The notes under the pieces: model-generated | What the model was told of the DNA's origin: nothing | What the model saw: only the letters and a program-made list of their open reading frames with translations | Databases searched by the model: none | Position numbers and translations under genes: made by a program | Source of the DNA: Escherichia phage DT571/2 | DNA: 64,000 nt | Strand: one strand, 5' to 3' | Sequence record: NC_047749.1 | In this document: piece after piece, positions 13,790 to 40,654 of the stretch | How the letters are laid out: every line of letters begins with the position of its first letter | Position numbering within the stretch: position 1 is the first letter of the stretch

Positions 13790-14629
13790 GTGAGGAATTG
13801 TACAGTGCGTAGATTAATTATTATTAGCGGTGCAGGTTTGAGTGTTGAAAGTGGTGTACGAGCCTTCCGTACTGATACTGCTAGTGGTAAAGCATTGTGG
13901 GATGATTATGATCTAGAAGAAGTATGTAATATTCATGCCTTTCGGGGTAATTTTTACCATAAAACCCACACGTTTTACAACAAACGTCGTGAAGAGTTAG
14001 AAACTGTTGAACCCAATCTTGCACACTTGCGTATTGGTGAATGGTATAAGAAATACCCAGGTCAAGTAGTAAACTTGACTACTAACGTTGATGATCTTAT
14101 TGAGCGTGCTGGCGTTCCACATAGTGACATTCTGCACATTCATGGATACTTAAAGGAGGTTGTTGTAGCTGATAGCTACAACAGTAGTAATAAACGAATT
14201 ATTGATGTTGGGTATAACTCTATTGACCCAGATGATTATAAATGGGTTAAACCTAATGTAGTCTTCTTTGGTGAGCATGCTCCAGCGTACGCAGAAATGT
14301 ATAATATTTTTGATGGTATTACCAGTCAAGATATGATCATTATGGTTGGTTGCTCTAACCAAGTAATTAACTTCTACTGGGAATTATTCCCTGTTCTTAA
14401 TCTGACTGCTGCAAAACTTATGGTGGTTAACTACTACGATAGTGCTCTAGCGGTGGGACCAGGCTATCAAGGTATGACTCGTAGTGAGATGTACCAACTG
14501 GAAGAACGGGGTATTCCTTACTGGGGTAAAGGTGCGGTAGATGCTTTCAGTGACCCTGATTTTATTGCTCGTGTGGAAGCCCATCTAGAGGGTAGACCTT
14601 ATATGCCGGGAAAACAGATATGTCCATAG
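13790..14629 (+). CDS. Sir2-family (sirtuin-like) NAD-dependent protein
   Basis: GAGLSVESGVRAFR (NAD-binding), TTNVDDL, catalytic HG in HIHGYL, VVFFGE; no Zn Cys4 module seen; GTG start (alternative GTG at ~13805). Confidence 0.8.
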   Translation: MRNCTVRRLIIISGAGLSVESGVRAFRTDTASGKALWDDYDLEEVCNIHAFRGNFYHKTHTFYNKRREELETVEPNLAHLRIGEWYKKYPGQVVNLTTNVDDLIERAGVPHSDILHIHGYLKEVVVADSYNSSNKRIIDVGYNSIDPDDYKWVKPNVVFFGEHAPAYAEMYNIFDGITSQDMIIMVGCSNQVINFYWELFPVLNLTAAKLMVVNYYDSALAVGPGYQGMTRSEMYQLEERGIPYWGKGAVDAFSDPDFIARVEAHLEGRPYMPGKQICP

Positions 14630-15297: not shown

Positions 15298-15726
15298 ATG
15301 TTCAATAATGTATTCTCTAAAGAAGCTAACCCAATATTGGTTAATTTTTGGCGTACTCTTCCAGCCAACCTGTACAATGAGGCTATTAATGCTCTGAAAA
15401 TATGGTGTGAGAATAATGAAATCTCCTTTGCTTTTAAGGATGAGATTGAAGAAGCTCCCTGTATTGGTTTAATTGTGCAGGTAGAGGATGGCTTTGAAGA
15501 GATTATCGGATGGAAAGAGCTGGATGAAATGGGATTGGTTTTTGCATTAAACTATAAGCTATTTATGCCCAATAAACACCGTATTGTTGTTAATTATAAA
15601 ACCAGTGAATCTCCGGGCTTTCAAGTTAATGAACATTACGGTTGGTCTTACTCACCGGAAGAAGTAAATGATGGTATCCAAAGACTTCGTCGTTTTGGTT
15701 ATCAAATTCCGGGTTTAACCGCCTAA
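15298..15726 (+). CDS. Hypothetical protein, paralogue A of tandem pair
   Basis: Shares W-x-EL-x-x-MGL-x-x-ALN-x-x-LF-x-P ... PGL core with next ORF. Confidence 0.7.
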   Translation: MFNNVFSKEANPILVNFWRTLPANLYNEAINALKIWCENNEISFAFKDEIEEAPCIGLIVQVEDGFEEIIGWKELDEMGLVFALNYKLFMPNKHRIVVNYKTSESPGFQVNEHYGWSYSPEEVNDGIQRLRRFGYQIPGLTA

Positions 15727-15735
15727 GGGGACACA

Positions 15736-16128
15736 ATGGAACAAGTATATTGGCGTCAGATTGATCCTAGTTTGGTGAAGAGTGCGGAGAAGCTGCTACA
15801 ACGTTGGTTGGGGGTAAGACAAGCCTCCTTCACTTTTCCGGAGCAGCAAATAGACGATCCCTGTGTTGGTGTTTTCCTATCAGGCTACGCTAGGGAAGTG
15901 GAATTGGATTGGAATGAATTGTCTGCTATGGGTTTAATTGTTGCACTAAATTTCTCTTTGTTCCATCCACGTGGGTTGGCAATATGTCGTGTGCCTGATG
16001 ACGGTTGTTCGCCCCATCTTTTACAGGTGGAAGATGATATTTGGGAGTACCCTCCAGATATTCTCAAAGAAGCTAAAGAACAATTAAATCGTGTTGGGAT
16101 TTATGTTCCAGGCCTGAATGATGAATGA
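15736..16128 (+). CDS. Hypothetical protein, paralogue B of tandem pair
   Basis: Homologous to 15298-15726 product; AAGGGGA RBS; followed by terminator. Confidence 0.7.
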   Translation: MEQVYWRQIDPSLVKSAEKLLQRWLGVRQASFTFPEQQIDDPCVGVFLSGYAREVELDWNELSAMGLIVALNFSLFHPRGLAICRVPDDGCSPHLLQVEDDIWEYPPDILKEAKEQLNRVGIYVPGLNDE

Positions 16129-16151
16129 TTTTTATTAGCTGAACTCTGATT

Positions 16152-16176
16152 ACCGAGTCATTTTGGCTCGGTTTTC
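16152..16176 (+). terminator. Intrinsic terminator after Sir2-like operon
   Basis: ACCGAG-loop-CTCGGT followed by TTTTCTCT. Confidence 0.55.
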
Positions 16177-16219
16177 TCTATGCTCAAAGACACTGGTAGC
16201 AGCCCCTGGAAAAATTTAC

Positions 16220-16248
16220 TTGCTTGATGCTCAAAATCTTGATATAAT
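16220..16248 (+). promoter_or_regulatory. Sigma70-type promoter TTGCTT-17-TATAAT preceding ~600-nt non-coding region
   Basis: Hexamers/spacing, AAAAATTT A-tract. Confidence 0.65.
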
Positions 16249-16842
16249 ATTTATATTGAATTGAGAGACATTAGTAAAAATTGATTTTGCTAATTTTTCT
16301 TAGTGAAGCTGACAAGGGATTTACGGCGAGAGGAATCGATGACCCGTAAATAGCTGCATAAGGTACGTTGCTAGAGCTTTACGAAAAAGTTTTTTCTTGT
16401 TTACAATCCGCGATACGGAACAGTTAGGCTGCCCCATTAAGGGTTGTTTTAACTATTACTAGTGTTTATATTGCATTAGTTAACCTTCAATTAAGTGATC
16501 TGTGTACCCTGAATTCGGAAAGGTAAATCCAAACCGTGCATATTTAGCTCGTTATATAGGCAGAGCTTTATATGGGGGTGCGAACGAAAAGAGCAGCGAA
16601 TGGCGGCACGTACAGTAGTCACCTACCAATAGGATAGTGAGGACAAGTAGAATCGGCTTAGCGGCCAATGACCTAGGTTCTATTCTGTATAAGAGCGAAG
16701 AGAGCACAGCACTGAGATATGATAACTTATTCATATTGTTTGATGATAATTGATGTTTACGTAAATAGTAGTAATAGTTGTTCTATTCTTTCTGAATAGT
16801 CCTAAAGAAAAGATTTCGATTAACCAACACAGGAGTATTATT

Positions 16843-19632
16843 GTGTTTTCTATCCTCCAAGGTCACGCCGGGTTTTCTCGTGATTTAGCAACAGGTATTT
16901 GGCGAGAAATCAAAGCGGGAGATTATACCTTTGCCAAGCGATTCTCGAAAGAGCATCCAGAAGGTAAACCAGCTTCTATGCCCTTCAAATTTGATGTAAT
17001 AGAAGAGCACGACCCACAAAGCCTTGCAGAAATGTTACCACTTATGAGACGTTTAACGTCTGACCCTCATATCGTTGCGGTACGAGGTCGATGTCTTGCA
17101 CCTAAAAATAATGTGCGACGTAAGAAAGATAACTTTAATGTATCTAATCCTAGTAATATTATTGCTATGGACGTGGATGGTATCCTAGATACCGGTGGGT
17201 ACGACAAATTTAATCTTGTTGGTATGGCCCGCCACATTATTAAGATGTTGAATAGTATTAGTGAGGATATGTTTCCTCTTGATGCAGGCTTTATAGCTCA
17301 TGCATCATCTTCGGCTGGGCTAAAACCAGGTATCCGAATGCACTTAATACTAGAATCTAACGTCAAGGTAACTCAGGGTCAGCTAAAGTTCTTATTTACA
17401 TCTATCAATGATAGTAGTAAGCAAAAATTTGGTTTTGATATTGCCGACCTAGCTTATTACTCATCTGTCCAGCTCCACTATTTTGCCGACCCCTTATTTA
17501 GCGATGGTATTGTTGATCCGTTTAAAGCGGAGAGTAAGCCACGTCTGGTGTATGTTAAAGGCTCAAAAGTAAACTTACCTAATAATCTAGTTGACTATGA
17601 AACAACTAGAGGAGAGTTTAAAGAGGAATTCTACTCTTTACTCGATCAAATTAAAGGCAAAAAGATTGCTTCTGATAAAGTAGAAGAAACCATCAGCGAG
17701 TTAGAAGAGGCTGATGATGGAGTGTACTTGCGTATTATCCCCAAACTATACCATAGAGCATTAGAGGATGGTGTTGATTTTGAATGGCTAGAACGTGAGA
17801 TTAAACCAGCTTTATCTGAATATATTGCAACTAAAGATAACAGTCGTAATATTCAAGATTACTTTAATAACGGTCGCAAGCAGGCTCTCAAAGCGTTTGT
17901 TAATAATTCTAAACGTGAGATTCCACCAAATCTGAAAGGTGTTCCACTTAAGAAATTAGAAGTGGATTCTCCACCAGAAGTTCCGTACCTGAAGATTAAC
18001 ATTGTGCCCCCAAAAGGTCATATAACATTTGTTAAGGCAAGTCTTGGTACGGGTAAAACTACGGCAGTAACTAAATGGCTGGACGCAGGTGTTCTTCCGG
18101 GCAACTTTTTAGCAGTTACAAATACTAGAGCACTGGTATCTTCAAATGCCAAGAAATTTAGTGCAGGACAATACGATAAGTCTGTAGATATGCTCAACTT
18201 TAAACGTGGGGCTATTGATCGTATGTCCACAACTATTCACTCTTTGCATAAGTTCAAAAGTTTTATTGGGCAAATAGACACCATTTTTATTGATGAATGT
18301 GACGCTGTAATGAATGACCTATTATTCGCCCCTGTTGTTAAACAACGTCGCGAGTGTATTCAAGTTCTACGTGACATCCTCATGACAGCTAAGACTGTAA
18401 TCTTATCCGATGGTGATATTAGTGCGGAAACAATTGAAGCATATGGTTCTTTGATTGAGTTCGATAAACCAGTTGCATTTTACAATCACCACCGTAAAAT
18501 GTTATCAAAGGCTCATGCTTATGAATTCCCTGATGAATCCAGTATTTGGGTTGCACTTCAGACTTCTCTAGAGATGGGTGAGAAATCTATTCTAGTATCT
18601 GATTGTGGTCCTGATGAGCTGAATGAGAAGGGTATGGCACTACGTCGTAATACTGGTGCATTAGTTAAAGAAATCCATTCAAACTCCACTTCAGATGTGG
18701 ATATTCGACGTATTCTGGATTATACAACTAATGAGCTAATTGATCAACAAATTGATTGCTTATTATGTAGTCCATCCGTAACGAGTGGAGTTGACTTTAA
18801 CTATTTTGATAACGTATTTGTTATTACTAGAACCAGTAATCAGGCGCCAAACATGCGTTTTCAAGCAATCAGGCGCGACCGTGGTGCTCAGAATATCTAT
18901 TATTTTATTGATAAATCCACTAGTGGATTCTCTGCGGGTTCTGAACAATATAATATCGATGAAGGTTGGCTGGAGTTAGCACAGCAATTATATGCACGTC
19001 GCAGGGAGCTGGAGTCTAGGAACTATACTAGTACTTTACGTTATTACTTGCTTGATCAGGGTGCAACTATTGATATTTTCAGTGAAAGCTGGGGAACTAT
19101 TGAAGGTGCTGGTAAAGAATACACAGAAGAGCGAATCAAAGCTATTCTACATTCAACTCCTGATTATTGTGCTCCACGTCATGCGGATGCGTATGAGGCT
19201 AAACTACTTATTGTTCGCTATTATCATCTTGAGTCTATTAAAGATGTAACAGTTGAGCATGTTGAACAATATATCAAAGATAAGCCGAATGATCGAGCTG
19301 CATTCTTCCATAAGATGCACGAGATGTTCTGGGAAGATATTAAGAAGTGTTCAAATGTGACCATTAAACCATTCATAGAAGCTCTGAAAGGTAAGAAGAA
19401 AGATTTCTTCCTTAAAACAGGTCAGAGTGCTAACCCAAAATATGCTAGAATGTATCTTGGTATGATGGGTATTGGTAAAGATATGAACACGGAGAATATC
19501 GTAGACTGGTATAGAACCTACTGCAAAATCGAATGTATGCCAATCCCTCTCAAATTCATGACTGAAGAAGAGAAGGCTATGGCAGAAGAAGCAATGTCAG
19601 AACTAGGTGCTAGAAATGACAGTGAAGAATAA
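16843..19632 (+). CDS. Large ATPase/helicase-like protein (929 aa; Walker A GTGKTT, Walker B IFIDECD); possible replication initiation/origin-binding helicase
   Basis: GTG start with AGGAG RBS; P-loop and DExD motifs in central region; ~390-aa N-terminal domain of unknown function. Confidence 0.85.
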   Translation: MFSILQGHAGFSRDLATGIWREIKAGDYTFAKRFSKEHPEGKPASMPFKFDVIEEHDPQSLAEMLPLMRRLTSDPHIVAVRGRCLAPKNNVRRKKDNFNVSNPSNIIAMDVDGILDTGGYDKFNLVGMARHIIKMLNSISEDMFPLDAGFIAHASSSAGLKPGIRMHLILESNVKVTQGQLKFLFTSINDSSKQKFGFDIADLAYYSSVQLHYFADPLFSDGIVDPFKAESKPRLVYVKGSKVNLPNNLVDYETTRGEFKEEFYSLLDQIKGKKIASDKVEETISELEEADDGVYLRIIPKLYHRALEDGVDFEWLEREIKPALSEYIATKDNSRNIQDYFNNGRKQALKAFVNNSKREIPPNLKGVPLKKLEVDSPPEVPYLKINIVPPKGHITFVKASLGTGKTTAVTKWLDAGVLPGNFLAVTNTRALVSSNAKKFSAGQYDKSVDMLNFKRGAIDRMSTTIHSLHKFKSFIGQIDTIFIDECDAVMNDLLFAPVVKQRRECIQVLRDILMTAKTVILSDGDISAETIEAYGSLIEFDKPVAFYNHHRKMLSKAHAYEFPDESSIWVALQTSLEMGEKSILVSDCGPDELNEKGMALRRNTGALVKEIHSNSTSDVDIRRILDYTTNELIDQQIDCLLCSPSVTSGVDFNYFDNVFVITRTSNQAPNMRFQAIRRDRGAQNIYYFIDKSTSGFSAGSEQYNIDEGWLELAQQLYARRRELESRNYTSTLRYYLLDQGATIDIFSESWGTIEGAGKEYTEERIKAILHSTPDYCAPRHADAYEAKLLIVRYYHLESIKDVTVEHVEQYIKDKPNDRAAFFHKMHEMFWEDIKKCSNVTIKPFIEALKGKKKDFFLKTGQSANPKYARMYLGMMGIGKDMNTENIVDWYRTYCKIECMPIPLKFMTEEEKAMAEEAMSELGARNDSEE

Positions 19633-19849
19633 AAAATGGGAAACAAGGAAGTTTCCAGTAAAAGAACGTAAAGTTCCTGTTTATGATACTTCGGAGAAGC
19701 TATGTAGGGTGGTTCCTGCTAGACTAGCAGGTATCCCTAACATATCCGAGTGGTTACTTAAACAACGGAGGACTAGCGTATCCCTTCGCATAGGGTTTGA
19801 GTTGGATAAAGTATATGCTGAACTTTCTTCTTTGCTCAAGGAATCATAA
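19616..19849 (+). CDS. Small hypothetical protein (~77 aa)
   Basis: ATG overlapping end of upstream gene; weak RBS. Confidence 0.35.
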   Translation: MTVKNKKWETRKFPVKERKVPVYDTSEKLCRVVPARLAGIPNISEWLLKQRRTSVSLRIGFELDKVYAELSSLLKES

Positions 19850-19918: not shown

Positions 19919-20623
19919 ATGGCTGGTTCTCGCAGAAAGAAACATATCCATGAAATCCCGGATGAAGTCTTTAAAAAAGTTATAGAGCATCTGGAGAACG
20001 GTGGTACTAAGAAAGCAGCATGTGAGATGCTCGGCGTATCATCCAATCCGACTATGGAAAGGATGATAGAAGAGTGGCAAGATCGCCAAATTCAAGTTGC
20101 CGAGATGAAGAAAAAGAAACGTGGTACACTCATTGAAGGCATCGAGTTAGCTAACGTTATTGAACAGTATTTATCCGGTGATTCTTTTGAAGAGATTGCC
20201 GATCGTAATTATCGCTCTGTAGCAATGGTTAAATCTGTTCTGGAACGATATGGTGCTCTACTTCGTTTGAACGATATTGTAGACCCGTTGAATCCACCAA
20301 TTATTCCTGATGATGCTGTAGCAGAAGAATTTGAAGTAGGTGAGCTAGTTTGGGTTCCTGGATACCAGTGTATCGGTGAAATCAAAAAAGCAATGGATAA
20401 CCCTGTTGGTTGTTACCGTGTATGGCTTCTATCAGAAGGCAAACAACAGAATGTTCATTATATGAATTATGAATTAGCTTCTGTAAAGCATTTAGAAAAG
20501 CTAGGGGTTGACGTAAAATCTCTGGGGTATAAATGGTCCCGGGAAGAAGTTATCACACTGATTAACGAAGCTGTTAAGGCTGCCTTGAAACTTGATAAAG
20601 AAAAAGGAAAACGCCGTGAGTAA
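19919..20623 (+). CDS. Putative DNA-binding protein (N-terminal HTH-like segment)
   Basis: GGTKKAACEMLGVSSNPTMERM resembles HTH; strong promoter and GAGAGGAG RBS upstream. Confidence 0.7.
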   Translation: MAGSRRKKHIHEIPDEVFKKVIEHLENGGTKKAACEMLGVSSNPTMERMIEEWQDRQIQVAEMKKKKRGTLIEGIELANVIEQYLSGDSFEEIADRNYRSVAMVKSVLERYGALLRLNDIVDPLNPPIIPDDAVAEEFEVGELVWVPGYQCIGEIKKAMDNPVGCYRVWLLSEGKQQNVHYMNYELASVKHLEKLGVDVKSLGYKWSREEVITLINEAVKAALKLDKEKGKRRE

Positions 20624-22127: not shown

Positions 22128-22328
22128 ATGGCAATGACAATAACACTTCCCAAGATTCAAGCAAAACTTAATCTACTTTCCACAGCACGCATTAATTATC
22201 AAGATAACATAGGCACAGTAAATCAAAAGGCGTACAAAGATGCGTTTCTGAAAGAATCTGCTGATTTGATGGATATGGTTACACAATATAATAAAGAACT
22301 CAAGATGGAAATCGCCGATGATGACTAA
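22128..22328 (+). CDS. Small hypothetical protein (66 aa)
   Basis: ATG 7 nt after GAGAGGA; downstream of promoter 22070-22098. Confidence 0.5.
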   Translation: MAMTITLPKIQAKLNLLSTARINYQDNIGTVNQKAYKDAFLKESADLMDMVTQYNKELKMEIADDD

Positions 22329-23292
22329 TGTAAAAGAATTTATTAAACGCTGTCAAGAAGCATATTATCAAGGCATGTCTTTAATCTCTGATGAAGAATA
22401 TGATCGCCTGGTAAAACGCTTCCCGTTAGAGGAAGAGATCGGGCCTAAGGGTGATATTCCACATCTATACCGTATGTATTCTTTACAGAAAGTTTATTAT
22501 AATCGTGGAGATAAACCCCCATTTAACCCGTTAGGTCAAGTAGAAACTGATAAGTTAGATGGTTGTGCAATTTCCCTGCTATATATTAATGGCGAATTTG
22601 TTCAAGCACTAACTCGTGGTAATGGTATTCTGGGAAATGATGTCACAAGCAACGTAAGATTGCTGAACATCCCTAAAAAGATTTCTCAAAAAGTACCTAC
22701 TCAAATCACTGGTGAAGTTCTAATTACAAAAGAAGTAGAAAATAAACGTAACTTTGCCTCTGGTGCTATTAACCTCAAAGATAGTGATGATTTCGTACAG
22801 CGTATCGGGGAAGGTGGTTTAATCTTCGTTGCATACGGTATCCAGTGTTCTGCTGAATCTGTAGGTATTACAGAAGCGTATTTAAAAGATATGCTTTGGC
22901 TAGAGAATGAGAACTTCTTAACAGTTGTTAATGTACGTTCCTTCTTTAAATGGATTCCAACGGACGGTAAAGTTGTTCGTATTAATGATAACAACAAATT
23001 CTTCCGTGAAGGCTGGACTAATAAATTTCCTCGCGGTGCATTTGCTATTAAAGAGGATGAAGAAGGTGAGACTACAACTCTTACTAAAGTTGAATGGAAT
23101 GTAGGGGCTTCTGGTAAAGTAACTCCAGTCGGTTATTTTGAACCAGTAATTATTGATGATGCTACAATTGTTAAAGCGACTCTTAATAACGTTGATTATA
23201 TTAACTCTCTCGATCTAGAGATCGGTTGCCAGATTCGAGTGATTCGTGCTGGTGGTGTAATCCCGTGCATAGTAGAACGAGTATACGATTAA
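22318..23292 (+). CDS. ligA: NAD-dependent DNA ligase, N-terminal part (adenylation + OB domains)
   Basis: Adenylation KxDG motif in TDKLDGCAISLLY; 324 aa; separate downstream ORF carries Zn-finger/HhH/BRCT part. Confidence 0.88.
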   Translation: MMTNVKEFIKRCQEAYYQGMSLISDEEYDRLVKRFPLEEEIGPKGDIPHLYRMYSLQKVYYNRGDKPPFNPLGQVETDKLDGCAISLLYINGEFVQALTRGNGILGNDVTSNVRLLNIPKKISQKVPTQITGEVLITKEVENKRNFASGAINLKDSDDFVQRIGEGGLIFVAYGIQCSAESVGITEAYLKDMLWLENENFLTVVNVRSFFKWIPTDGKVVRINDNNKFFREGWTNKFPRGAFAIKEDEEGETTTLTKVEWNVGASGKVTPVGYFEPVIIDDATIVKATLNNVDYINSLDLEIGCQIRVIRAGGVIPCIVERVYD

Positions 23293-23464: not shown

Positions 23465-23494
23465 ATTTATATAAATTGATAAGGAAGAAATTTG

Positions 23495-24274
23495 ATGAAA
23501 ATCGAAATTCCAACACAATGTCCCTCTTGTGGTTCTAAGCTAGATCTTGTCAACGGACAATTATTCTGTCGTAATAAGTCCAACTGTCCAGCGCAATCAA
23601 GTAAGTTAATTGAGAACTTCTGTACAAAAATGAAGTTAAAGGGCTTTGGCCCGAAAACTATTGAGAAGCTGGAGCTGACGAAGATTTCAGAACTATTTTA
23701 CCTAACCGAAGAAGATTTGGTTAGAGCCGTGGGTAGCAAGGTTGCCGCTAAGTTAATTAGCGAATTAAATACTAAAGTTCGCGGAGACATTGACTTTGGT
23801 TCAGTTCTCGGTTCTTTAGGAATCCCTCTAATTGGAGAGGTTGCAGCAAAGAAATTATCCCAAAATTGCACTAGCTTCCACGATGTGAAGGCTGACGGCA
23901 AGGCTGGAGAAAACTATAAAGCCTGGCTAAATTCCCCACAAGGCAAGGATGTTATCGAATTACCGTGGAAATTCTCAAATGGTATTAAAGGTGCTAAAGC
24001 TGACATCATCATTACAGATGAATTAGTTGCCCCGCCAAATGGAATCACGGTGTGTATTACCGGATCTTTGCAAGATTTTGCAAATCGAACGGATGCAACA
24101 AACTATCTAGAAGGTCTAGGGTATACTGTTAAAAAATCAGTTACCAAAGACGTTAAATACCTCATCTGTGAGGATGAATCTAAGCGTTCTTCCTCATCTT
24201 ATAAGAAAGCCGAAACGAATGGGATAGAAATCCTGTCGATTAAAGAACTATTGGAGAAAAATAATAATGTCTAA
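23495..24274 (+). CDS. ligB: NAD-dependent DNA ligase, C-terminal part (Zn finger, HhH, BRCT)
   Basis: CPSCGSKLDL...CRNKSNCPAQ Zn ribbon; BRCT-like C-terminus; ATG with AAGGAAG RBS. Confidence 0.88.
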   Translation: MKIEIPTQCPSCGSKLDLVNGQLFCRNKSNCPAQSSKLIENFCTKMKLKGFGPKTIEKLELTKISELFYLTEEDLVRAVGSKVAAKLISELNTKVRGDIDFGSVLGSLGIPLIGEVAAKKLSQNCTSFHDVKADGKAGENYKAWLNSPQGKDVIELPWKFSNGIKGAKADIIITDELVAPPNGITVCITGSLQDFANRTDATNYLEGLGYTVKKSVTKDVKYLICEDESKRSSSSYKKAETNGIEILSIKELLEKNNNV

Positions 24275-25051: not shown

Positions 25052-25085
25052 AAGGGGAGGGGGCTATGCTCCTTCCCCTTTTTGC
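25052..25085 (+). terminator. Intrinsic terminator after HTH-repeat protein gene
   Basis: ~12-bp G/C-rich stem (AAGGGGAGGGGG ... CTCCTTCCCCTT) followed by TTTTTG. Confidence 0.75.
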
Positions 25086-25116
25086 ATTTAGAAGGCACGA
25101 AAGCGTGCAAAGGAGA

Positions 25117-26589
25117 ATGACCTTGTTTAACGTGCAAGCTGTAGTGTTGAAGATGCTTCTAGCTTCAGAACAGAAGCAAATAGCATTGGAAACATTCTCA
25201 AAACTGCATAAAGATCATTTTAATGACGCTTTCTCCTCAATTTACCAAGCCGTCCAGAATTATTATAAAAAGTATAACACAATGCCGTCCATTGACGCAC
25301 TGATGCTTGAGGCTAATAGGAACGCCCGCCTTTCTCAAGCTCTAGTCGTTTTAGCTAACACTCAAATTCCAGAAGTTAGCATGGAACAGGCACTTGAAGT
25401 CCTAGAGGCCGAGTATACACAGGATTTATTCCTGAAGCTTCTAGAAACAGACGTGCTTCAAGATTTAACAATGCTGGATCAGGGAGAAATTCTTAACCGA
25501 GTTGCCTCCCTTCACTTAAAATTAGAAGAGAAAGTAACGAATACTGGAAAAGTATTCAACGCAGATAACATGCGTATTTTCCAGAGAGAAGAAGATACCA
25601 AACTGAACTTAATCGCTCTTGGTATTTGTAATGAGTTCGACGCTCAAATTGGTTTAGCTCGCACAGAAACGTTACTGCTTGGTGGTTGGCGTGGTACTGG
25701 TAAATCCATTATCTGTTCAAACATACAGGTTCAGCAATATTTGAATGGAGATATTGCTCCATACTTCTCAATTGAGATGAAAGAACATGAAGTATTTAGA
25801 CGTAATCTAGCTATGTTAGCTGGTGTATCAGCACTAGCAATGCGTAATAATACTCTAGAAGGTGCAGCTCTGTTGAGATTAGCCAGAACTAGAGCTAGGA
25901 TGTTTAACGGTGGTGAAGAGCTTTTCGATAACTTCGTTAAACAGTATACAATGGCTAAGATGTGTGATTTCTACGATATGGAAAGTAAGCTAATAGAAGG
26001 GTATGAGCTACATACTCCTATGATTATTGTTTATGATCCTGAGCTGTCTATTACAACAGTTGACGTAGAATTAAATAAATTAGTTGCTAGATACGGGGAT
26101 AAAGTTACAGTAGCTTTACTAGACTATATTAACCAAACCCGACTTCCAGACTCTAAAACCATTGATATGTATGACTGGAAAGAACAGATGGTTGTTAGCT
26201 CGTCTTTCAAATCTATCTGCCAGAAACATAACGTGGCTGGTGTAGCTCCTTACCAGATCGATCAAGATGGTAGAACACGTATGTCGAAGGGGATTCTTGA
26301 TTCCGCAGACATGGCTGCTAATCTTAATGCTGCAAAAGCTGATAATGGTCAAGGTGCTATTATGTTTGACTTCGTTAAGACTCGGTCTTCTGATAGCGTG
26401 AAGTTTATGCCTAAAATGAACTGGGAAACCCTGCGGATGGATAACACTACCAACCTAGCAATGGAAGATATATCTCAAATGGAAGCTGAGTTCGTTATCC
26501 CTATTGAGAAGGATAAGCCGGCTCAATCCAAACGTGCTAAGAAAGACAAAGCTGAAAATTCAACAGGTGAACAGGCCAGCGATATATGA
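25117..26589 (+). CDS. DnaB-like replicative helicase (RecA-fold ATPase)
   Basis: Walker A LLLGGWRGTGKS; track start 25066 lies inside terminator hairpin so internal ATG 25117 (or TTG 25123) preferred. Confidence 0.8.
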   Translation: MTLFNVQAVVLKMLLASEQKQIALETFSKLHKDHFNDAFSSIYQAVQNYYKKYNTMPSIDALMLEANRNARLSQALVVLANTQIPEVSMEQALEVLEAEYTQDLFLKLLETDVLQDLTMLDQGEILNRVASLHLKLEEKVTNTGKVFNADNMRIFQREEDTKLNLIALGICNEFDAQIGLARTETLLLGGWRGTGKSIICSNIQVQQYLNGDIAPYFSIEMKEHEVFRRNLAMLAGVSALAMRNNTLEGAALLRLARTRARMFNGGEELFDNFVKQYTMAKMCDFYDMESKLIEGYELHTPMIIVYDPELSITTVDVELNKLVARYGDKVTVALLDYINQTRLPDSKTIDMYDWKEQMVVSSSFKSICQKHNVAGVAPYQIDQDGRTRMSKGILDSADMAANLNAAKADNGQGAIMFDFVKTRSSDSVKFMPKMNWETLRMDNTTNLAMEDISQMEAEFVIPIEKDKPAQSKRAKKDKAENSTGEQASDI

Positions 26590-27476
26590 GTAGAATAACA
26601 GAACTACTTGATCTGAAAGGCATTGAGTATAAAGACACAGGTGGGGACATCCTCATCTGTTGTCTCAACCCAGATCATGATGATAAACACCCAAGTTTGC
26701 GTATTGACCCTGAAACAGGTATTATGCACTGCTTGAGTTGTGGCTTCGGTAAAGGTATACCGAGCATTTACCATTATTTTAATGAGACTCAGTACCGACA
26801 GTCCCCAAGACTATCCCAAGTACGTAAAAAGATTTCAGAGATTAGAAATGGATCTACAAATCTTGCAATCCCAGAATCTGCTTTTCTTTTTGAAGGTGAT
26901 TTCCGGGGTATCAGTTCTAAGACCTTAAAGAAATATTTTGCTTTCCAACACCAAGAGGACTGGGAGGGCAGAATTGTATTCCCAATCACAGATGCTGTTG
27001 GACGCAATATCCTATTTTTGGGTCGTTCTATAAACAGTTCTGCCCCTCCTAAATACTTAGTAAAACCAAAACAAGTTTCACCACCAATTTTCCCTGTACG
27101 ATATAATACTCCAGTTCTTATTCTAGTTGAAGGCATCTTTGATATGCTGAAGCTAGAGGATAATGGTATAGACTATGCTTCCTGCTGCTTTGGTACACAT
27201 CAGTTTACTTCTGATAACATTGCAGATAAGTTCAGTCCTTATATTATTGCCGGCGTAAAAGTTGTTGTTATCTTACTAGATAATGATGCTTCTGGTAATA
27301 AAGCTGCACAAGCACTGGCCAAGCTAATTCGTACAAAAACGCGTTTAACACCTGTAGTTGCTAACTTTCTTCTGCCTGAAGGTAAAGACCCTGGTGATTT
27401 AAATAAAGAAGAAGTCGATACGTTAGCAAAACGTATTGAAATTTTAGTTGCTGAATCACTTAAAGATTTGGTATAA
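26586..27476 (+). CDS. DnaG-type DNA primase (zinc ribbon + TOPRIM)
   Basis: CCLNPDHDDKHPSLRID...CLSCGFGKG zinc ribbon; TOPRIM acidic motifs LVEGIFDM and LLDNDASG. Confidence 0.85.
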   Translation: MSRITELLDLKGIEYKDTGGDILICCLNPDHDDKHPSLRIDPETGIMHCLSCGFGKGIPSIYHYFNETQYRQSPRLSQVRKKISEIRNGSTNLAIPESAFLFEGDFRGISSKTLKKYFAFQHQEDWEGRIVFPITDAVGRNILFLGRSINSSAPPKYLVKPKQVSPPIFPVRYNTPVLILVEGIFDMLKLEDNGIDYASCCFGTHQFTSDNIADKFSPYIIAGVKVVVILLDNDASGNKAAQALAKLIRTKTRLTPVVANFLLPEGKDPGDLNKEEVDTLAKRIEILVAESLKDLV

Positions 27477-30106: not shown

Positions 30107-30596
30107 TTTCAAATTGCCCGTCTATGCGTTACGGGCGTTTGTATCAATTGAGCAAGAAGGTGATTATTCCGTAATTACAACAAGATATAATAAATATGTG
30201 CTAGATAACAGGAAGTTGCCTGGCACGTTTTCTCAACGTAGGCTTATTCTATTTGAGAAACGGAAAGAATTACCATATAAGCTCTATCCTATTAGAGGTA
30301 GAATATCAATGTTGTCTCAATTAGTTGGGTCAAAGCGTAACCAATTTGTAGATTCTGATGGAAATCTTATTAATTGGAAGAAAACTACGTTCTATGATGT
30401 TGTCACCTCTAAAGTTTTGCATTCAGCTAGAATTTACAATGGAAAATACCAATGCTATGTGGCTAAAGTCCCTTATCCATTTGTATTATCCTATGTTCCA
30501 GCTTATATAAGCTATATTCTGGTAAATAATAGCCCTGTTATTTATCAAGTCCATCAAGAGGAGCCTGAAATTCCTAGACTTAGAATAAAATTATGA
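30099..30596 (+). CDS. Hypothetical protein (165 aa)
   Basis: GTG start overlapping polymerase stop. Confidence 0.5.
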   Translation: MLNFKLPVYALRAFVSIEQEGDYSVITTRYNKYVLDNRKLPGTFSQRRLILFEKRKELPYKLYPIRGRISMLSQLVGSKRNQFVDSDGNLINWKKTTFYDVVTSKVLHSARIYNGKYQCYVAKVPYPFVLSYVPAYISYILVNNSPVIYQVHQEEPEIPRLRIKL

Positions 30597-31945
30597 AGGT
30601 TGTTATATCTAATAAAGCCTATTTCAAGCCCGATGATGAACTTTGGGATTATTGTAGTAAGCAAACCACTTACCACATAGAGACAATGACTAGTAAATAC
30701 CCTATTATGTATAAGAATAGTGGTGTTGTTGCCAAAGAGATTAAGTGGATTCCTATTACACGTCTGGATTTACTAGATGCTAAAGGAATAAAATACGAAT
30801 TAGTTGATAAACGCACGTTAGCTCCGGTAGATATACCAAAACCGTCGTTTAAACTGCGTGAAGAAGATCAGCTTCCAATATATGAAGAATGCGATGATAC
30901 CTGCATTATTAATGGTAAGCCTGGGTTTGGTAAAACTATCCTAGCCCTTGCACTTGCGTATAAATTTGGCCAGAAAACTTTGGTAATCTGTACGAATACA
31001 TCCATTCGTGAAATGTGGGCAGCAGAAGTTCGTAAATGGTTTGGGTTTGAACCGGGCATCATAGGTTCTGGGAAATACAATATCGATCCACCAATTGTAG
31101 TCAGTAATATTCAAACAGTGAATAAACATGCGAATAATCTTTCTAAAGTATTCGGTACTGTTATAGTTGATGAAGTTCACCATTGTGTGGCTACAACTTT
31201 CACTAACTTCCTAGAAATATCATGTGCTCGCTATAAAATTGGACTATCTGGTACGTTAAAACGTAAGGATGGCTTGCAAGTTATGTTCAAAGATTTCTTT
31301 GGATATAAAATATTTAGCCCGCCGGTTAATAATACTGTTGCACCTACAATCCATAGGTACTCCGTACCAGTTGAATTGTCTGGAAACCAAAACGTACCGT
31401 GGGCATTACGTGCTAACGATGTGTATAACCACCCTGAATATCGAGGAGCTATTATAAACCTAGCACATTTATATGTGAATATGGGACATAAAGTACTCAT
31501 TGTAAGTGATAGAACAGAGTTAATCCAAACAGTACTAGAAGCTCTTACGCAGCGGGGTGTCACAACATATGAAATTATAGGGGCAACCCACTTAGATGAC
31601 CGATTAAAAATTCAGGAAGATATAGCAAAAGGTGGGCCTTGTGTACTTGCAGCAGCTCAAAGTATCTTCTCTGAGGGTATTTCCCTTAATGAGCTATCTT
31701 GTTTAATAATGGGAAGCCTCATTAATAATGAATCTCTCATTGAACAGCTTGCAGGCCGTGTTCAACGTATTGTCGATGGTAAACTCGACCCTATTGTTGT
31801 AGATCTAATTATGAAGGGGGGCACTGGACTAAGACAGGCTTCTGGACGTATGGCAGTATATCGTAACAACGGGTGGAAAACTATTACTATGACTCCAGAG
31901 AAAGCAGTTCAATTAGCTAAAATTGCATTTGGCAACAGCTCATAA
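30593..31945 (+). CDS. SF2 DNA helicase (DEAH-box type)
   Basis: Walker A GKPGFGKT, DEVHH, motif VI QRxGR-like LAGRVQR. Confidence 0.85.
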   Translation: MKVVISNKAYFKPDDELWDYCSKQTTYHIETMTSKYPIMYKNSGVVAKEIKWIPITRLDLLDAKGIKYELVDKRTLAPVDIPKPSFKLREEDQLPIYEECDDTCIINGKPGFGKTILALALAYKFGQKTLVICTNTSIREMWAAEVRKWFGFEPGIIGSGKYNIDPPIVVSNIQTVNKHANNLSKVFGTVIVDEVHHCVATTFTNFLEISCARYKIGLSGTLKRKDGLQVMFKDFFGYKIFSPPVNNTVAPTIHRYSVPVELSGNQNVPWALRANDVYNHPEYRGAIINLAHLYVNMGHKVLIVSDRTELIQTVLEALTQRGVTTYEIIGATHLDDRLKIQEDIAKGGPCVLAAAQSIFSEGISLNELSCLIMGSLINNESLIEQLAGRVQRIVDGKLDPIVVDLIMKGGTGLRQASGRMAVYRNNGWKTITMTPEKAVQLAKIAFGNSS

Positions 31946-37854: not shown

Positions 37855-38089
37855 TTTTACTGATCCTAATGGGGTAGACTTAGACTTAGCTGAACCTACT
37901 AATTTCTATCATGTGGCTGTTGCTCAGCCTGATCTTAACAAAATTGTACTTAAAGTCGATATGTTTGGTAATGTGGAACATTGGGATGAGGAAGGATTCT
38001 TGAACTTATGTAATGAGTCTCAAGACCCAACTCTCAAAGCCCTGTTAGCCGTATACAATTTAGGTATTATCAAAGGAAGTAAAGATTAA
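37817..38089 (+). CDS. Hypothetical protein (90 aa)
   Basis: GTG start with GAGGAG RBS; followed by bidirectional terminator. Confidence 0.4.
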   Translation: MEKVDLEAQEVSNFTDPNGVDLDLAEPTNFYHVAVAQPDLNKIVLKVDMFGNVEHWDEEGFLNLCNESQDPTLKALLAVYNLGIIKGSKD

Positions 38090-38090
38090 T

Positions 38091-38127
38091 AAAAAACCCC
38101 CAGTGGACAATCCACTGGGGGTTTTTT
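38091..38127. terminator. Bidirectional intrinsic terminator at convergence of early (plus) and late (minus) transcription
   Basis: AAAAAA-CCCCCAGTGGA-CAA-TCCACTGGGGG-TTTTTT symmetric hairpin. Confidence 0.85.
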
Positions 38128-38311
38128 ATTTATTTACCTACCTTTAACTCAGCAATCTCGGCTTACGTTGCCTAGATATTCGGTATCAACGTTTACACAG
38201 TGTGCGTCGTATTCCACAGCATGAGATGTGTATAGAGTTCCTTCTGCTCCAGTAAGTACCACCTGGCTAACACCCGCATACTTACCGGAGCCTTTCAGCG
38301 CCTTGAGTGAA

Positions 38312-40615
38312 TTATTTCGCTGCCTTCAGCGCGGCTATCTCTGCCTTCAAATCCTCGATTTGCTTATTGAGATACTGCACACAACCCATCAAATCCATAA
38401 CGATCGGGTTTACATCCACCGACGGCCTGTCGCGGGTCTTACCACCGATAATAGCGTTAGTCTCTGGGTCCACCTCCACATCGTACGTCTCTTCTCGATG
38501 TTTGATGTATTGAGGTGCAATCGCTTCAGCCTCCTCGGCAATTATGCCGAAGCGGACGCGCTCCTGCACATCGTCCTTATACACGTAGTTCACCATGCGC
38601 ATTTGTTCAATACGTGCAACCGCTTCTGTAACGTCTGCATTGACAATATCTTTCTTAAAGTCCCGCCCCGATGTGCCTTGCAAGGCAAGAACACCACCAG
38701 ATGAAGGCCAGTTGATTGTAATGCCAGTGCCGTTTCCCTTCTCAAAATATTTATAGATCTGGTTACTATTGATATTAACCGAATCCCACATCGTGCGGAA
38801 ATTACCAGCCGGGACTGAATCTTTTGCGTTGTGTAGAACGAAAGACTTCACCGGACCGTCGGTAGTCGGGCGAATGGTTATATCACGGGCCCACACTACT
38901 CCGCCTGTTCCCGCTCCGGGGATCTCCACGACGGTATCTCGGTACGCGCCCGACGCGTCATATGATTGCAACTTAAAATTGCCCGAAGCGTCGTTAATCC
39001 CCATACGCCAGCGTACTTTATCGGCGGAATCCGCCCAACATACACCGTCAAAATCGGAGTTCACCGAGTTCACAACTATACTATTCGGTATAGTTAGTTT
39101 ACCTGTTTCGTCAAAATCCAGATTCGCGCTTCTTTGTGTGGTACTGTTCGTTACGGAAATACGAGCAGAATAGTTACCGCCGATATCGGCACGGGCACAG
39201 AAACTAGCTTCAGCCTCATTGGCGCCACTAATCTTGTACAATGAGAATATGTTACCACCTTGAGCAATTGTGCCGTCAGCTGGACGTGTCGCATCACCAT
39301 TGATCACACTCCAAGACGTATTCGCCGCCACGAACCCGCCTGACGCTCGAATAACCCACACACCCATGAAGTTATTTGGACGCAACTCCGTTACGGTCCG
39401 ACCATAGATCGCGCTGACCCTCGAGGCGTCCAGGTTAATGATGCCGTAGGAGACCGCGCCGTTACTAACAGTTAGGTTGCTTGGCGTCCGATATTGCGAA
39501 TCCGCGCCACCAGACCCATGGAACGCGCCACTTTCACCGTTGATAATACTTGCGGACCCGCCGCCGTGTAATTCGACGCGGCCTGTGATGTTAGGTGCTC
39601 CTGATTCGTAGATATACCCATCGTTGCCACTTTGCCCGCCGTCCCCCCGGCAGAACAAGCCGAATATTGACCCAGGCTGAACACCATTACGGTCTGGCAC
39701 TCGGAAGGTCGTTGTGCCGTCACCAGTAGAATACTTGCCGCGCTGATTTGGGTTAGCCAGCCAGGTAGCGTCACTAATTGGCGATAGCATTTGCGCATAC
39801 GCCCAGAGTTCGGGCCAGTCAGCACGATTCAACAACTGACCATCACTCACCACCTCGTACGGCTGAATGTATGCGCGACTATCCCGCAGGTGAAAGTCAC
39901 CTACCCCATAGTTCATAACGCCATTCATGGTAGGTCCAACTGTACCAGTGTTAATCTTATTCTCTACCCAACGTTTGGTTACAGCATCGTAGTCCCCCAC
40001 AGGGTCCCCAGCAAGAGGGGTGGACCCTTGTGGTCTTACAACGTCCCATAAAGCTTCTCTATTATTTACCCCGGTACCCCCTTGTTCAACCGGGAGTGCT
40101 AACCACTCATTCTCTGTATCACTATAAACTCCCCAAGTACCATTATTTTGAATAGTTAATCTAGAATTCTTATCACCACTGTAGATTATGGTTTCTGTTT
40201 CGGACTCCTGACTAAATCTATCGAGTTCCAGTGCGGTTTTAGCCCCCTCTAGTGTAGAAGAACCAGTACCACCTTGAGCAATCGTAATAGCCTTAGTAAG
40301 CGCATTTAATTCTGTAATATCATTATTAGCACCTTTAGCAGCTTTACTATCTATGGTGATATTCATACTACCAAGAGCAGTATTGATATTCCCAATAGCC
40401 TCTACATTGTTCTGAATGGAACTATCAATACCAGTTAAACGAGTATTTAATTCTTCTTTATCTATAGTGTAGTTAGAGATTTGTAGGTATTTAGAAGTTA
40501 GTGCAACAGCACCAGCTTCTCCATCAACAGAGAAAACGCCTGCAACCGCAGCATCTCTGTTAACTACAACGTATGGCGCCATTGCGCCGGATTTAGGCAT
40601 TAAATTACGTGACAT
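38312..40615 (-). CDS. ltfB: L-shaped tail fibre protein, second copy (LtfB-like) with C-terminal intramolecular chaperone domain
   Basis: 767 aa; internal ~120-aa module near-identical to upstream fibre; C-terminal ...LKAEIAALKAAK chaperone-like end; AAGGAAA RBS. Confidence 0.8.
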   Translation of the reverse strand: MSRNLMPKSGAMAPYVVVNRDAAVAGVFSVDGEAGAVALTSKYLQISNYTIDKEELNTRLTGIDSSIQNNVEAIGNINTALGSMNITIDSKAAKGANNDITELNALTKAITIAQGGTGSSTLEGAKTALELDRFSQESETETIIYSGDKNSRLTIQNNGTWGVYSDTENEWLALPVEQGGTGVNNREALWDVVRPQGSTPLAGDPVGDYDAVTKRWVENKINTGTVGPTMNGVMNYGVGDFHLRDSRAYIQPYEVVSDGQLLNRADWPELWAYAQMLSPISDATWLANPNQRGKYSTGDGTTTFRVPDRNGVQPGSIFGLFCRGDGGQSGNDGYIYESGAPNITGRVELHGGGSASIINGESGAFHGSGGADSQYRTPSNLTVSNGAVSYGIINLDASRVSAIYGRTVTELRPNNFMGVWVIRASGGFVAANTSWSVINGDATRPADGTIAQGGNIFSLYKISGANEAEASFCARADIGGNYSARISVTNSTTQRSANLDFDETGKLTIPNSIVVNSVNSDFDGVCWADSADKVRWRMGINDASGNFKLQSYDASGAYRDTVVEIPGAGTGGVVWARDITIRPTTDGPVKSFVLHNAKDSVPAGNFRTMWDSVNINSNQIYKYFEKGNGTGITINWPSSGGVLALQGTSGRDFKKDIVNADVTEAVARIEQMRMVNYVYKDDVQERVRFGIIAEEAEAIAPQYIKHREETYDVEVDPETNAIIGGKTRDRPSVDVNPIVMDLMGCVQYLNKQIEDLKAEIAALKAAK

Positions 40616-40633
40616 AGTATTTCCTTAGTAAAT

Positions 40634-40649
40634 AGGGGCCGAAGCCCCT
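40634..40649 (-). terminator. Hairpin between ltfA and ltfB (AGGGGC-TTCG-GCCCCT), weak terminator/attenuator
   Basis: GC hairpin with short U-run, overlaps ltfB RBS region. Confidence 0.4.
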
Positions 40650-40654
40650 TTGAA

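Follow-up and report, generated by a model that had tools for sequence, protein, structure and literature searches.

A probable primase-polymerase-type domain in the D2 replication protein of a T5-like phage

The D2 protein and its closest described counterparts

Bacteriophage T5 is a classic model phage, and D2, its only candidate replication initiator, has been studied as a helicase alone. Here we describe the D2 orthologue of Escherichia phage DT571/2 (NC_047749.1), which is encoded by an open reading frame (ORF) for 929 amino acids (aa) at 16843..19632 (+) of the analysed window, a stretch of 64,000 nucleotides (nt) to which all coordinates refer. Sequence conservation and structure prediction indicate that its N-terminal part, aa ~20-255, is very probably an archaeo-eukaryotic primase (AEP)-type primase-polymerase domain with intact active-site residues. 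T5 D2 itself was characterized by Wong, Sayers & Sanders (2013, PMC3632103) as an ATPase and a bipolar 3'-5'/5'-3' superfamily 2 (SF2) helicase, with Walker A at residues 396-406, Walker B at 475-489, and described motifs V and VI. In the same work, the K405E substitution abolished ATPase and helicase activities while DNA binding was fully retained, limited unwinding in vitro was independent of ATP hydrolysis, and the protein was found on DNA as a low-order oligomer, not as a hexameric replicative ring. The authors suggested that D2 takes part in initiating replication, and D2 amber mutants are reported there to carry out no net DNA replication. For residues 1-388, only a predicted coiled coil (270-289) and a helix-turn-helix (HTH, 308-329) were noted (PMC3632103).

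Several other systems resemble parts of this protein. UL9 of herpes simplex virus (HSV)-1 (PDB 9hgi, 9hgj; PF02399) is the nearest match to the helicase half of D2 in both sequence and structure; both are SF2 helicases implicated in initiation, although the identity is only ~14-15%. UL9 contains no AEP domain, since the herpesvirus AEP, UL52, sits in a separate helicase-primase complex. In the all3500-like family (Anabaena), which belongs to the PrimPol-PV1 supergroup, AEP cores are fused to D5, VirE/VapE, and UL9-like SF2 helicases (Kazlauskas et al. 2018, PMC5862659). This family and the putative AEP module of D2 have in common a His at motif II, an Arg past motif III (R234 in D2, a candidate equivalent), the same types of partner, and a setting in phages, plasmids, and other mobile elements; T5-like phages are not named in the text or supplements of that AEP census.

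Poxvirus D5 and the 'P4-family' primase-helicases are built as AEP - PriCT-2 - D5_N - superfamily 3 (SF3) helicase, a layout that also occurs in one distant relative of the D2 core, and the AEP domains of vaccinia virus (VACV) D5 and monkeypox virus (MPXV) E5 are among the best fold matches of the D2 N-terminal module. D2 differs from them in having a UL9-like SF2 helicase instead of the SF3 helicase, and neither PriCT-2 nor D5_N is detected in it. The cyanobacterial plasmid initiators CyRepA1 and CyRepA2, experimentally shown to be Rep proteins (PMC10079941), carry the helicase type of D2 behind a primase-related N-terminal domain and helical linkers. Their N-terminal module, however, is the Toprim-related DUF3854 and not AEP-like, and D2 falls short of membership in the CyRepA1 family. 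pRN1 ORF904 (AEP prim-pol, helix-bundle domain, and SF3 helicase) shows no significant sequence or profile similarity to D2, and its helicase belongs to another superfamily. ORF904 and D5-type proteins, in which an AEP is joined to both a helicase and an accessory helical domain, are precedents for D2, as are the all3500-like fusions and the CyRepA initiators.

AEP-helicase fusions, UL9-like ones included, are already known, and so are the gene, its helicase activity, and its likeness to UL9. What is apparently new is that an AEP domain, probably an active one, is assigned to the T5 D2 family on the basis of sequence comparison and modeling; curated sequence models have overlooked it there. 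We found no paper making an AEP or primase assignment for T5 D2 in the open-access literature, a search that did not cover the AEP survey of Iyer et al. 2005, and the text of a 2016 viral-replication census gave no match to T5- or UL9-related terms. A 2026 'phage primase-helicase' preprint was set aside as irrelevant to D2, as it deals with T7 gp4.

The identity of the gene is firm. It starts with GTG, is 96% identical at the nucleotide level to its counterparts in BF23 and EC122, and encodes a protein whose aa 1-390 share 98.5% identity with the obp-annotated protein of T5; the Walker A lysine carries the same number, K405, as the residue replaced in the published T5 mutant. The source phage is T5-like (Tequintavirus, near BF23). 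PHROG 3712 ('replication origin binding') aligns with residues 1-926 over profile positions 1-927 of 927 (E = 0), and the gene order Sir2-like ... D2 ... D3, ligA/B, D5, DnaB-like, primase, pol is common to BF23, T5_ev219, DaisyDussoix, My1, and a Klebsiella phage. The full-length profile match and the kept synteny place the protein in the T5 D2 orthologous group of Demerecviridae. The protein is therefore the BF23/T5-type orthologue of the already characterized T5 D2, sharing its length, synteny, and K405 numbering; nothing substantive differs at the protein level, and only the annotation does. The GTG start is correct, because aa 1-10 form a confidently modeled beta-strand (predicted local distance difference test, pLDDT, 97 in the AlphaFold2 model) and the PHROG 3712 match begins at residue 1. 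In GenBank, the T5-type gene is mostly labeled 'replication origin binding protein' or 'hypothetical', and in a few records 'DNA primase' or 'DNA primase C'.

A preliminary description of this ORF had given its length and placed Walker A (GTGKTT, aa 402) and Walker B (IFIDECD, aa 481) correctly. It had also presented the protein as a fourth replication-type ATPase beside a DnaG-type primase and two other helicases. Those three proteins are indeed separately encoded, but the ATPase is not an unknown one, being the orthologue of a characterized helicase.

The N-terminal module

The same preliminary description had pointed to three acidic clusters in the first ~390 aa, namely IIAMDVDG (aa 106), GIRMHLILES (aa 163), and FDIADLAYY (aa 198), as possible traces of a primase-polymerase-like module. 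The clusters lie at these positions, and their acidic and His residues occupy some of the best-conserved columns in the family. In an AEP-like fold they correspond to the motifs hhhDhD (I107-D112), His (H167), and hD (A201-D202). They do not arise by chance, since tblastn finds the N-terminal 390 aa in 904 phage records, at identities as low as 25%. All of these are T5-like phages of Escherichia, Salmonella, Klebsiella, Pectobacterium, Vibrio, and Aeromonas, and the module always lies within a protein of 930-1050 aa. HMMER, run exhaustively over 1.84 billion cluster representatives, returned 80 relatives, of which ~35 are full-length proteins of the D2 type and ~45 are distant, with lengths of 230-1400 aa and matches to query residues ~30-255 only. 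A word-index homologue search retrieved 2 proteins with aa 1-390 and 8 with a 45-sequence core profile, mostly fragments.

Column counts were taken over 75 aligned relatives, in which the catalytic residues are kept at 22-35% identity. The best-conserved columns are K32, R93, D110, D112, S155, S157, G159, H167, D202, P217, D225-P226, and R234. D202 is present in all 75 relatives, while D110 and D112 are each present in 74, the lone exception for both being a fragmentary sequence. The H167 column holds His in 69 relatives and Arg in the remaining 6, and replacement of the motif II His by Arg or Lys has been reported in the DR0530-like AEP family (PMC5862659). In the loop that lies 8-12 residues upstream of H167, S155 is kept in 70/75, S157 in 67/75, and G159 in 71/74. 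R234, found in 71 of the 75 relatives and in 39 of 39 distant ones, lies 32 residues past D202, a spacing comparable to that of positions 179 and 231 of PolpTN2 (positions from PMC5862659); a conserved downstream Arg ('motif IV', flange) defines the PrimPol-PV1 supergroup (PMC5862659). The six relatives with Arg at motif II (P0046, P0056, P0058, P0061, P0076, and P0082) are all distant ones, and they retain D110, D112, D202, and R234.

The AEP catalytic core is defined as an N-terminal alpha/beta unit together with a derived unit resembling the RNA recognition motif (RRM) fold (PMC4538821). An AlphaFold2 model of aa 1-390, built from a 71-sequence alignment, has a pLDDT of 94.2 and a predicted template modeling score (pTM) of 0.78. 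Its elements follow the order of strand 104-114 (containing DxD), helix 125-139, strand 150-154, the SSSAG loop, strand 164-176 (containing H167), helix 178-196, and D202. This modeled arrangement is an RRM-like beta-alpha-beta-beta-alpha unit placed after a beta-rich N-terminal unit, in agreement with the definition of the AEP core. In a first structure comparison, the long matches were all AEPs, although the scores were weak: 6.0 for the MPXV E5 AEP domain, 5.9 each for HSV UL52 and vaccinia D5, 5.7 for pRN1 ORF904, 5.3-5.5 for polymerases of non-homologous end joining (NHEJ)/LigD, 5.3 for HP0184, and 5.2 for S-2L PrimPol. The remaining matches were short helical-repeat alignments to the helical tail of the model. 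The top 50 Foldseek matches were also nearly all AEPs, including LigD polymerase, African swine fever virus (ASFV) PrimPol, S-2L PrimPol, RepB', human PrimPol, Prim-PolC, D5/E5, and UL52, again with weak scores (best E 2e-3, probability 0.99, template modeling (TM) score 0.2-0.4). Among the fold matches of aa 1-390 there was no rolling-circle endonuclease, no papovavirus origin-binding domain, and no competing RRM-like fold. A purely non-catalytic DNA-binding fold, which the preliminary description had named as the outcome opposed to its primase guess, was thus not what the comparisons returned. Of the two approaches proposed there for aa 1-390, domain models in Pfam and NCBIfam yielded nothing, whereas structure prediction gave the AEP-like model.

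The domain partners of the core point in the same direction. Among 43 distant relatives, it is fused upstream of DUF5906 (D5-type helicase) in 10-12, a VapE-like helicase in 9, PriCT_2 in 5-6, the P4-family primase C-terminal domain in 4, D5_N in 2, and Pox_D5 in 1. In relative P0053, the core (16-250) is followed by PriCT_2 (246-323), D5_N (414-567), a D5-type helicase (599-711), and Pox_D5 (775-862). By its domain matches, this is the canonical layout of poxvirus D5 and phage/plasmid primase-helicases, with a D2-type core in the AEP slot. When 45 trimmed cores were compared with PHROGs, all 45 matched phrog_3712 and 29 matched phrog_16950 'DNA primase' (best E 1.9e-51); the latter similarity is probably the source of the 'DNA primase' labels on a few T5-type GenBank records.

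The AEP assignment is made because fold, motifs, conservation, and architecture agree, and not on a statistically strong single match. A confident model, long fold matches to AEPs only, near-invariant catalytic columns, and PriCT-2/D5 partners thereby lend substance to the earlier primase-polymerase guess. Other identities were considered for this region. A Toprim/DnaG primase was rejected on the lack of any Toprim or Zn-ribbon match in aa 1-390 (Pfam), and a HUH/rolling-circle endonuclease on the lack of a HUH motif and of such a fold match for aa 1-260; a pure HTH DNA-binding domain was also considered as an account of aa 1-260 and rejected. The name PriCT-2 was dropped for the helical domain at aa ~261-356, as it has no similarity to the PriCT-2 of the relatives.

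The helicase half, the proposed mechanism and its competitors

The second half of D2 is a UL9-like SF2 helicase over aa ~389-700, as judged by both sequence and predicted structure. Pfam PF02399 (Herpes_ori_bp) matches aa 389-533 with 30.6 bits against a cut-off of 20, covering only profile positions 46-197 of 820. A phmmer search of PDB sequences retrieved HSV UL9 chains only (E 5e-5), and the full profile matched solely UL9 and other SF2 helicases. NCBIfam CyRepA1 (NF042913) aligns with aa 392-708 (E 5e-35) at 121 bits, under the family cut-off of 200. For aa 391-929, an AlphaFold2 model based on 30 orthologues has a pLDDT of 92 and a pTM of 0.84, and its best Foldseek match in the PDB is HSV-1 UL9 (E 8e-15 to 4e-13; TM 0.49-0.53 by query over 523-671 aligned columns). 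Generic DEAD-box/RecQ helicases come next at E 1e-10, so that UL9 is ahead by four to five orders of magnitude. The comparison with UL9 proposed in the preliminary description therefore holds for the helicase half, aa ~389-929, and fails for the N-terminal module.

The all-helical domain at aa ~709-929 has no Pfam family match and is a candidate DNA-binding or oligomerization module. The best UL9 alignments (TM 0.52-0.53) span 523-557 columns, but a TM score of 0.52 is too low for this modeled domain to be equated with the origin-binding domain of UL9.

We consider it fairly probable that D2 is a four-part primase-helicase replication initiator acting beside a separate DnaB/DnaG pair. Its parts would be the N-terminal AEP core with an intact metal- and nucleotide-binding set of D110, D112, H167, D202, and probably R234; the helical domain at aa ~261-356, located where other AEPs have PriCT/helix-bundle accessory domains; the UL9-like SF2 helicase; and the helical C-terminal domain. 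The helicase half would open or unwind DNA, the fused AEP would synthesize the first primer or primers on the exposed single strand, and the DnaB-like helicase/DnaG-type primase pair together with PolA would then run the forks. We infer that the AEP domain may be enzymatically active, that its activity may be priming, and that this priming may take place at initiation. A further step, which we offer only as a possibility somewhat short of likely, is that T5-type phages divide labor between two unrelated primases, D2 recognizing or opening the origin with its UL9-like helicase half and laying the first primer with its own AEP domain while the DnaB-like/DnaG-type pair primes the lagging strand.

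Several observations weigh against this reading of D2. With aa 1-390, Pfam and NCBIfam returned noise only (SGIII, DUF445, UspF), no AEP family was matched by the 43 distant relatives in Pfam at E<=1, and the 45-sequence core profile found 0 chains among PDB sequences at E<=10. The hhalign comparisons of the core profile with the single sequences of S-2L PrimPol and pRN1 ORF904 were uninformative (probability 0.2%). In 65 of 75 relatives, R or K occupies the position two residues before H167, where the canonical sxH motif has a small residue. The N-terminal module lacks a zinc finger, and the helical region aa 250-390 has no similarity to the PriCT-2 (PF08707) of the relatives. The assays reported for T5 D2 in PMC3632103 are of ATPase, helicase, and DNA binding only, with no priming or polymerase assay among them. 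A second primase is not obviously required where a DnaG-type primase is separately encoded. Finally, the name 'D2' stands on two genes in the records, and the classical D2 amber mutants may map to the other ORF.

Some of these points could also be explained by an AEP-derived fold that no longer catalyzes anything and serves as a DNA-/origin-binding or protein-interaction domain positioning the helicase. The motif II deviation, the lack of a zinc finger and of a recognizable PriCT domain, and the DnaG-type primase already encoded all suit such a domain. According to a review, AEP-related origin-binding domains have lost all catalytic activity (PMC4538821), those of papovaviruses being regarded as inactivated relatives of this fold, and the full DNA binding of K405E D2 places DNA binding outside the ATPase site (PMC3632103). 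However, inactivated domains usually lose their catalytic residues, whereas D110, D112, and D202 persist in 74-75 of 75 relatives even at 22-35% identity; moreover, H167 varies only to Arg, a type of substitution also described for the DR0530-like AEP family (PMC5862659), and neither rolling-circle replication endonucleases nor origin-binding domains appear among the fold matches. We therefore regard the loss of catalysis as unlikely. That the likeness to AEPs is fortuitous, an unrelated alpha/beta fold having placed DxD...H...D for other metal-dependent chemistry such as that of a nuclease or a nucleotidyltransferase of another class, seems very improbable. The weak similarity scores given above leave some room for it, yet two independent structure comparisons lead to one superfamily with no rival fold among the long alignments, and the order, spacing, and strand placement of the motifs fit the AEP definition. 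In addition, homologous cores are directly followed by PriCT-2 and D5_N, two domains hitherto associated with AEPs, and a related PHROG is already labeled DNA primase.

An active AEP could also be used elsewhere than at the origin, in a PrimPol-like damage-tolerance function coupled to the bipolar helicase. It could then re-prime or extend DNA where forks have stalled, at the single-strand nicks that T5-type genomes naturally contain, or in recombination-dependent replication. Many prim-pols serve repair and re-priming and not initiation (PMC4538821), T5 D2 unwinds with both polarities and binds as a low-order oligomer (PMC3632103), and LigD/NHEJ polymerases and human PrimPol are among the structural neighbors. 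On the other hand, the helicase half is nearest to dedicated initiators (UL9, the CyRepA1 plasmid Rep, and 'RepA' initiators), the gene is located in the early replication cluster, and the relatives of the core show the architectures of plasmid and phage replicative primase-helicases. The D2 amber mutants that reportedly make no net DNA (PMC3632103) also argue for initiation, with the caveat of the ambiguous name. We judge a repair or re-priming role to be quite improbable and retain initiation as the favored function of the putative AEP-helicase.

The presence of an AEP in D2 would imply that T5-like phages encode two unrelated primases, which can be tested on a purifiable protein of a model phage. 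If the domain is active, the published biochemistry of D2 is incomplete, and a second primase is mis- or under-annotated in ~900 sequenced T5-like phages, many of which have been put forward for therapy or biocontrol. A divergent AEP family overlooked by Pfam, NCBIfam, and PDB-sequence searches would then gain a tractable, already purifiable representative, and the pairing of an AEP and a UL9-type helicase in a tailed phage would be one more link, besides those already known, between the replication modules of phages and those of herpesviruses. Should the division of labor between two primases also hold, one phage polypeptide would unite functions that herpesviruses split between UL9 and UL52, a tailed-phage origin of the herpesvirus initiation module would be indicated, and T5 initiation would receive a concrete enzyme. 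If the AEP is inactive, D2 would be an unusual pseudo-primase that retains a complete catalytic signature.

Features and neighboring genes

The features of the D2 gene and the other replication genes mentioned above are compiled in Table 1. PolA is also encoded in the window.

Table 1. Positions of the D2 gene, its predicted domains and motifs, and separately encoded replication proteins in the window
Feature	Position	Strand	Basis
Whole gene, T5 D2 orthologue (AAU05245; 'replication origin binding protein', obp), 929 aa	16843..19632	+	nt/aa identity, PHROG 3712, K405 numbering
Shine-Dalgarno-like AGGAG, 7 nt before GTG	16831..16835	+	read from sequence
Probable AEP (prim-pol)-like catalytic core, aa ~20-255	16900..17607	+	fold, motifs, conservation, architecture
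Putative AEP motif I, hhhDhD: I107-A-M-D110-V-D112	17161..17178	+	strand 104-114; column census
Putative AEP motif II region: S155-S-S157-A-G159 loop, R165-M-H167 on strand 164-176	17305..17343	+	column census
Putative AEP motif III, hD: A201-D202	17443..17448	+	column census
R234, candidate 'motif IV' arginine of PrimPol-PV1 supergroup	17542..17544	+	column census
Alpha-helical domain, aa ~261-356	17623..17910	+	place of PriCT-2 in distant relatives; includes the coiled coil (270-289) and 'HTH' (308-329) predictions of 2013
UL9-like SF2 helicase core (two RecA-like domains), aa ~389-700	18007..18942	+	PF02399, UL9 PDB chains, AlphaFold2 model, Foldseek
Walker A/P-loop (SLGTGKTT, K405; GTGKTT from aa 402)	18037..18063	+	G, K, T invariant in 30 orthologues
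Walker B (IFIDECD from aa 481; DE of DExD box)	18283..18303	+	F, D, E invariant in 30 orthologues
C-terminal all-helical domain, aa ~709-929	18967..19629	+	helices from model residue 319 onward
DnaB-like helicase	25066..26589		window ORF
DnaG-type Zn-ribbon/Toprim primase	26586..27476		window ORF
D10 SF2 helicase	30593..31945		window ORF

A gap of 714 bp (16129-16842) lies upstream of the D2 gene. It contains a terminator-like hairpin (16152-16172) and then a strong promoter-like TTGCTT-17 nt-TATAAT (16220-16248), past which ~590 nt contain no plus-strand ORF >38 aa and match nothing in Rfam. Hundreds of T5-like phages share the gap at 90-97% nucleotide identity, and it bears no annotation in them; its RNA fold has a z-score of -2.4, and 1 of 100 shuffles folds equally well. 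The gap may represent a long structured leader or else an element that is regulatory or close to an origin and serves the initiator gene. Before the gap, two ORFs of 142 and 130 aa (15298-15726 and 15736-16128, +) are adjacent tandem paralogues with 31% identity (E 6e-20); they are mostly annotated 'hypothetical', and in T5_ev219 'Phage exonuclease (ACLAME 70)'.

Downstream of the D2 gene, the ORF at 19919-20623 (+), of 234 aa, is called 'D2 protein', 'D2 helicase', 'helicase', or 'putative helicase' in BF23, T5_ev219, My1, IW18, phi 3, a Klebsiella phage, and DaisyDussoix. Pfam gives it a sub-threshold HTH_28 only, and no helicase motif. This ORF shares the name with the 929-aa ORF, which encodes the biochemically characterized helicase, so that the classical D2 amber mutants may lie in either gene. 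DaisyDussoix has two putative homing-endonuclease ORFs directly downstream of its D2 orthologue (L010, 11774-12871). These are absent at the equivalent site of the window, which has only an 80-aa ORF (19607..19849).

According to the BF23 annotation, two further traits of the window are known from the T5 group: a gene for a Sir2-like protein (13790-14629, +), located a few genes upstream of D2, and an NAD-dependent DNA ligase divided between two ORFs, ligA and ligB (22318-23292 and 23492-24274, +). Further along, the region 38001-42000 has a G+C content of 0.47-0.50 versus ~0.39 elsewhere, and a change in the sign of the GC skew marks a switch of the coding strand there, with a 767-aa ORF on the minus strand (38312..40615).

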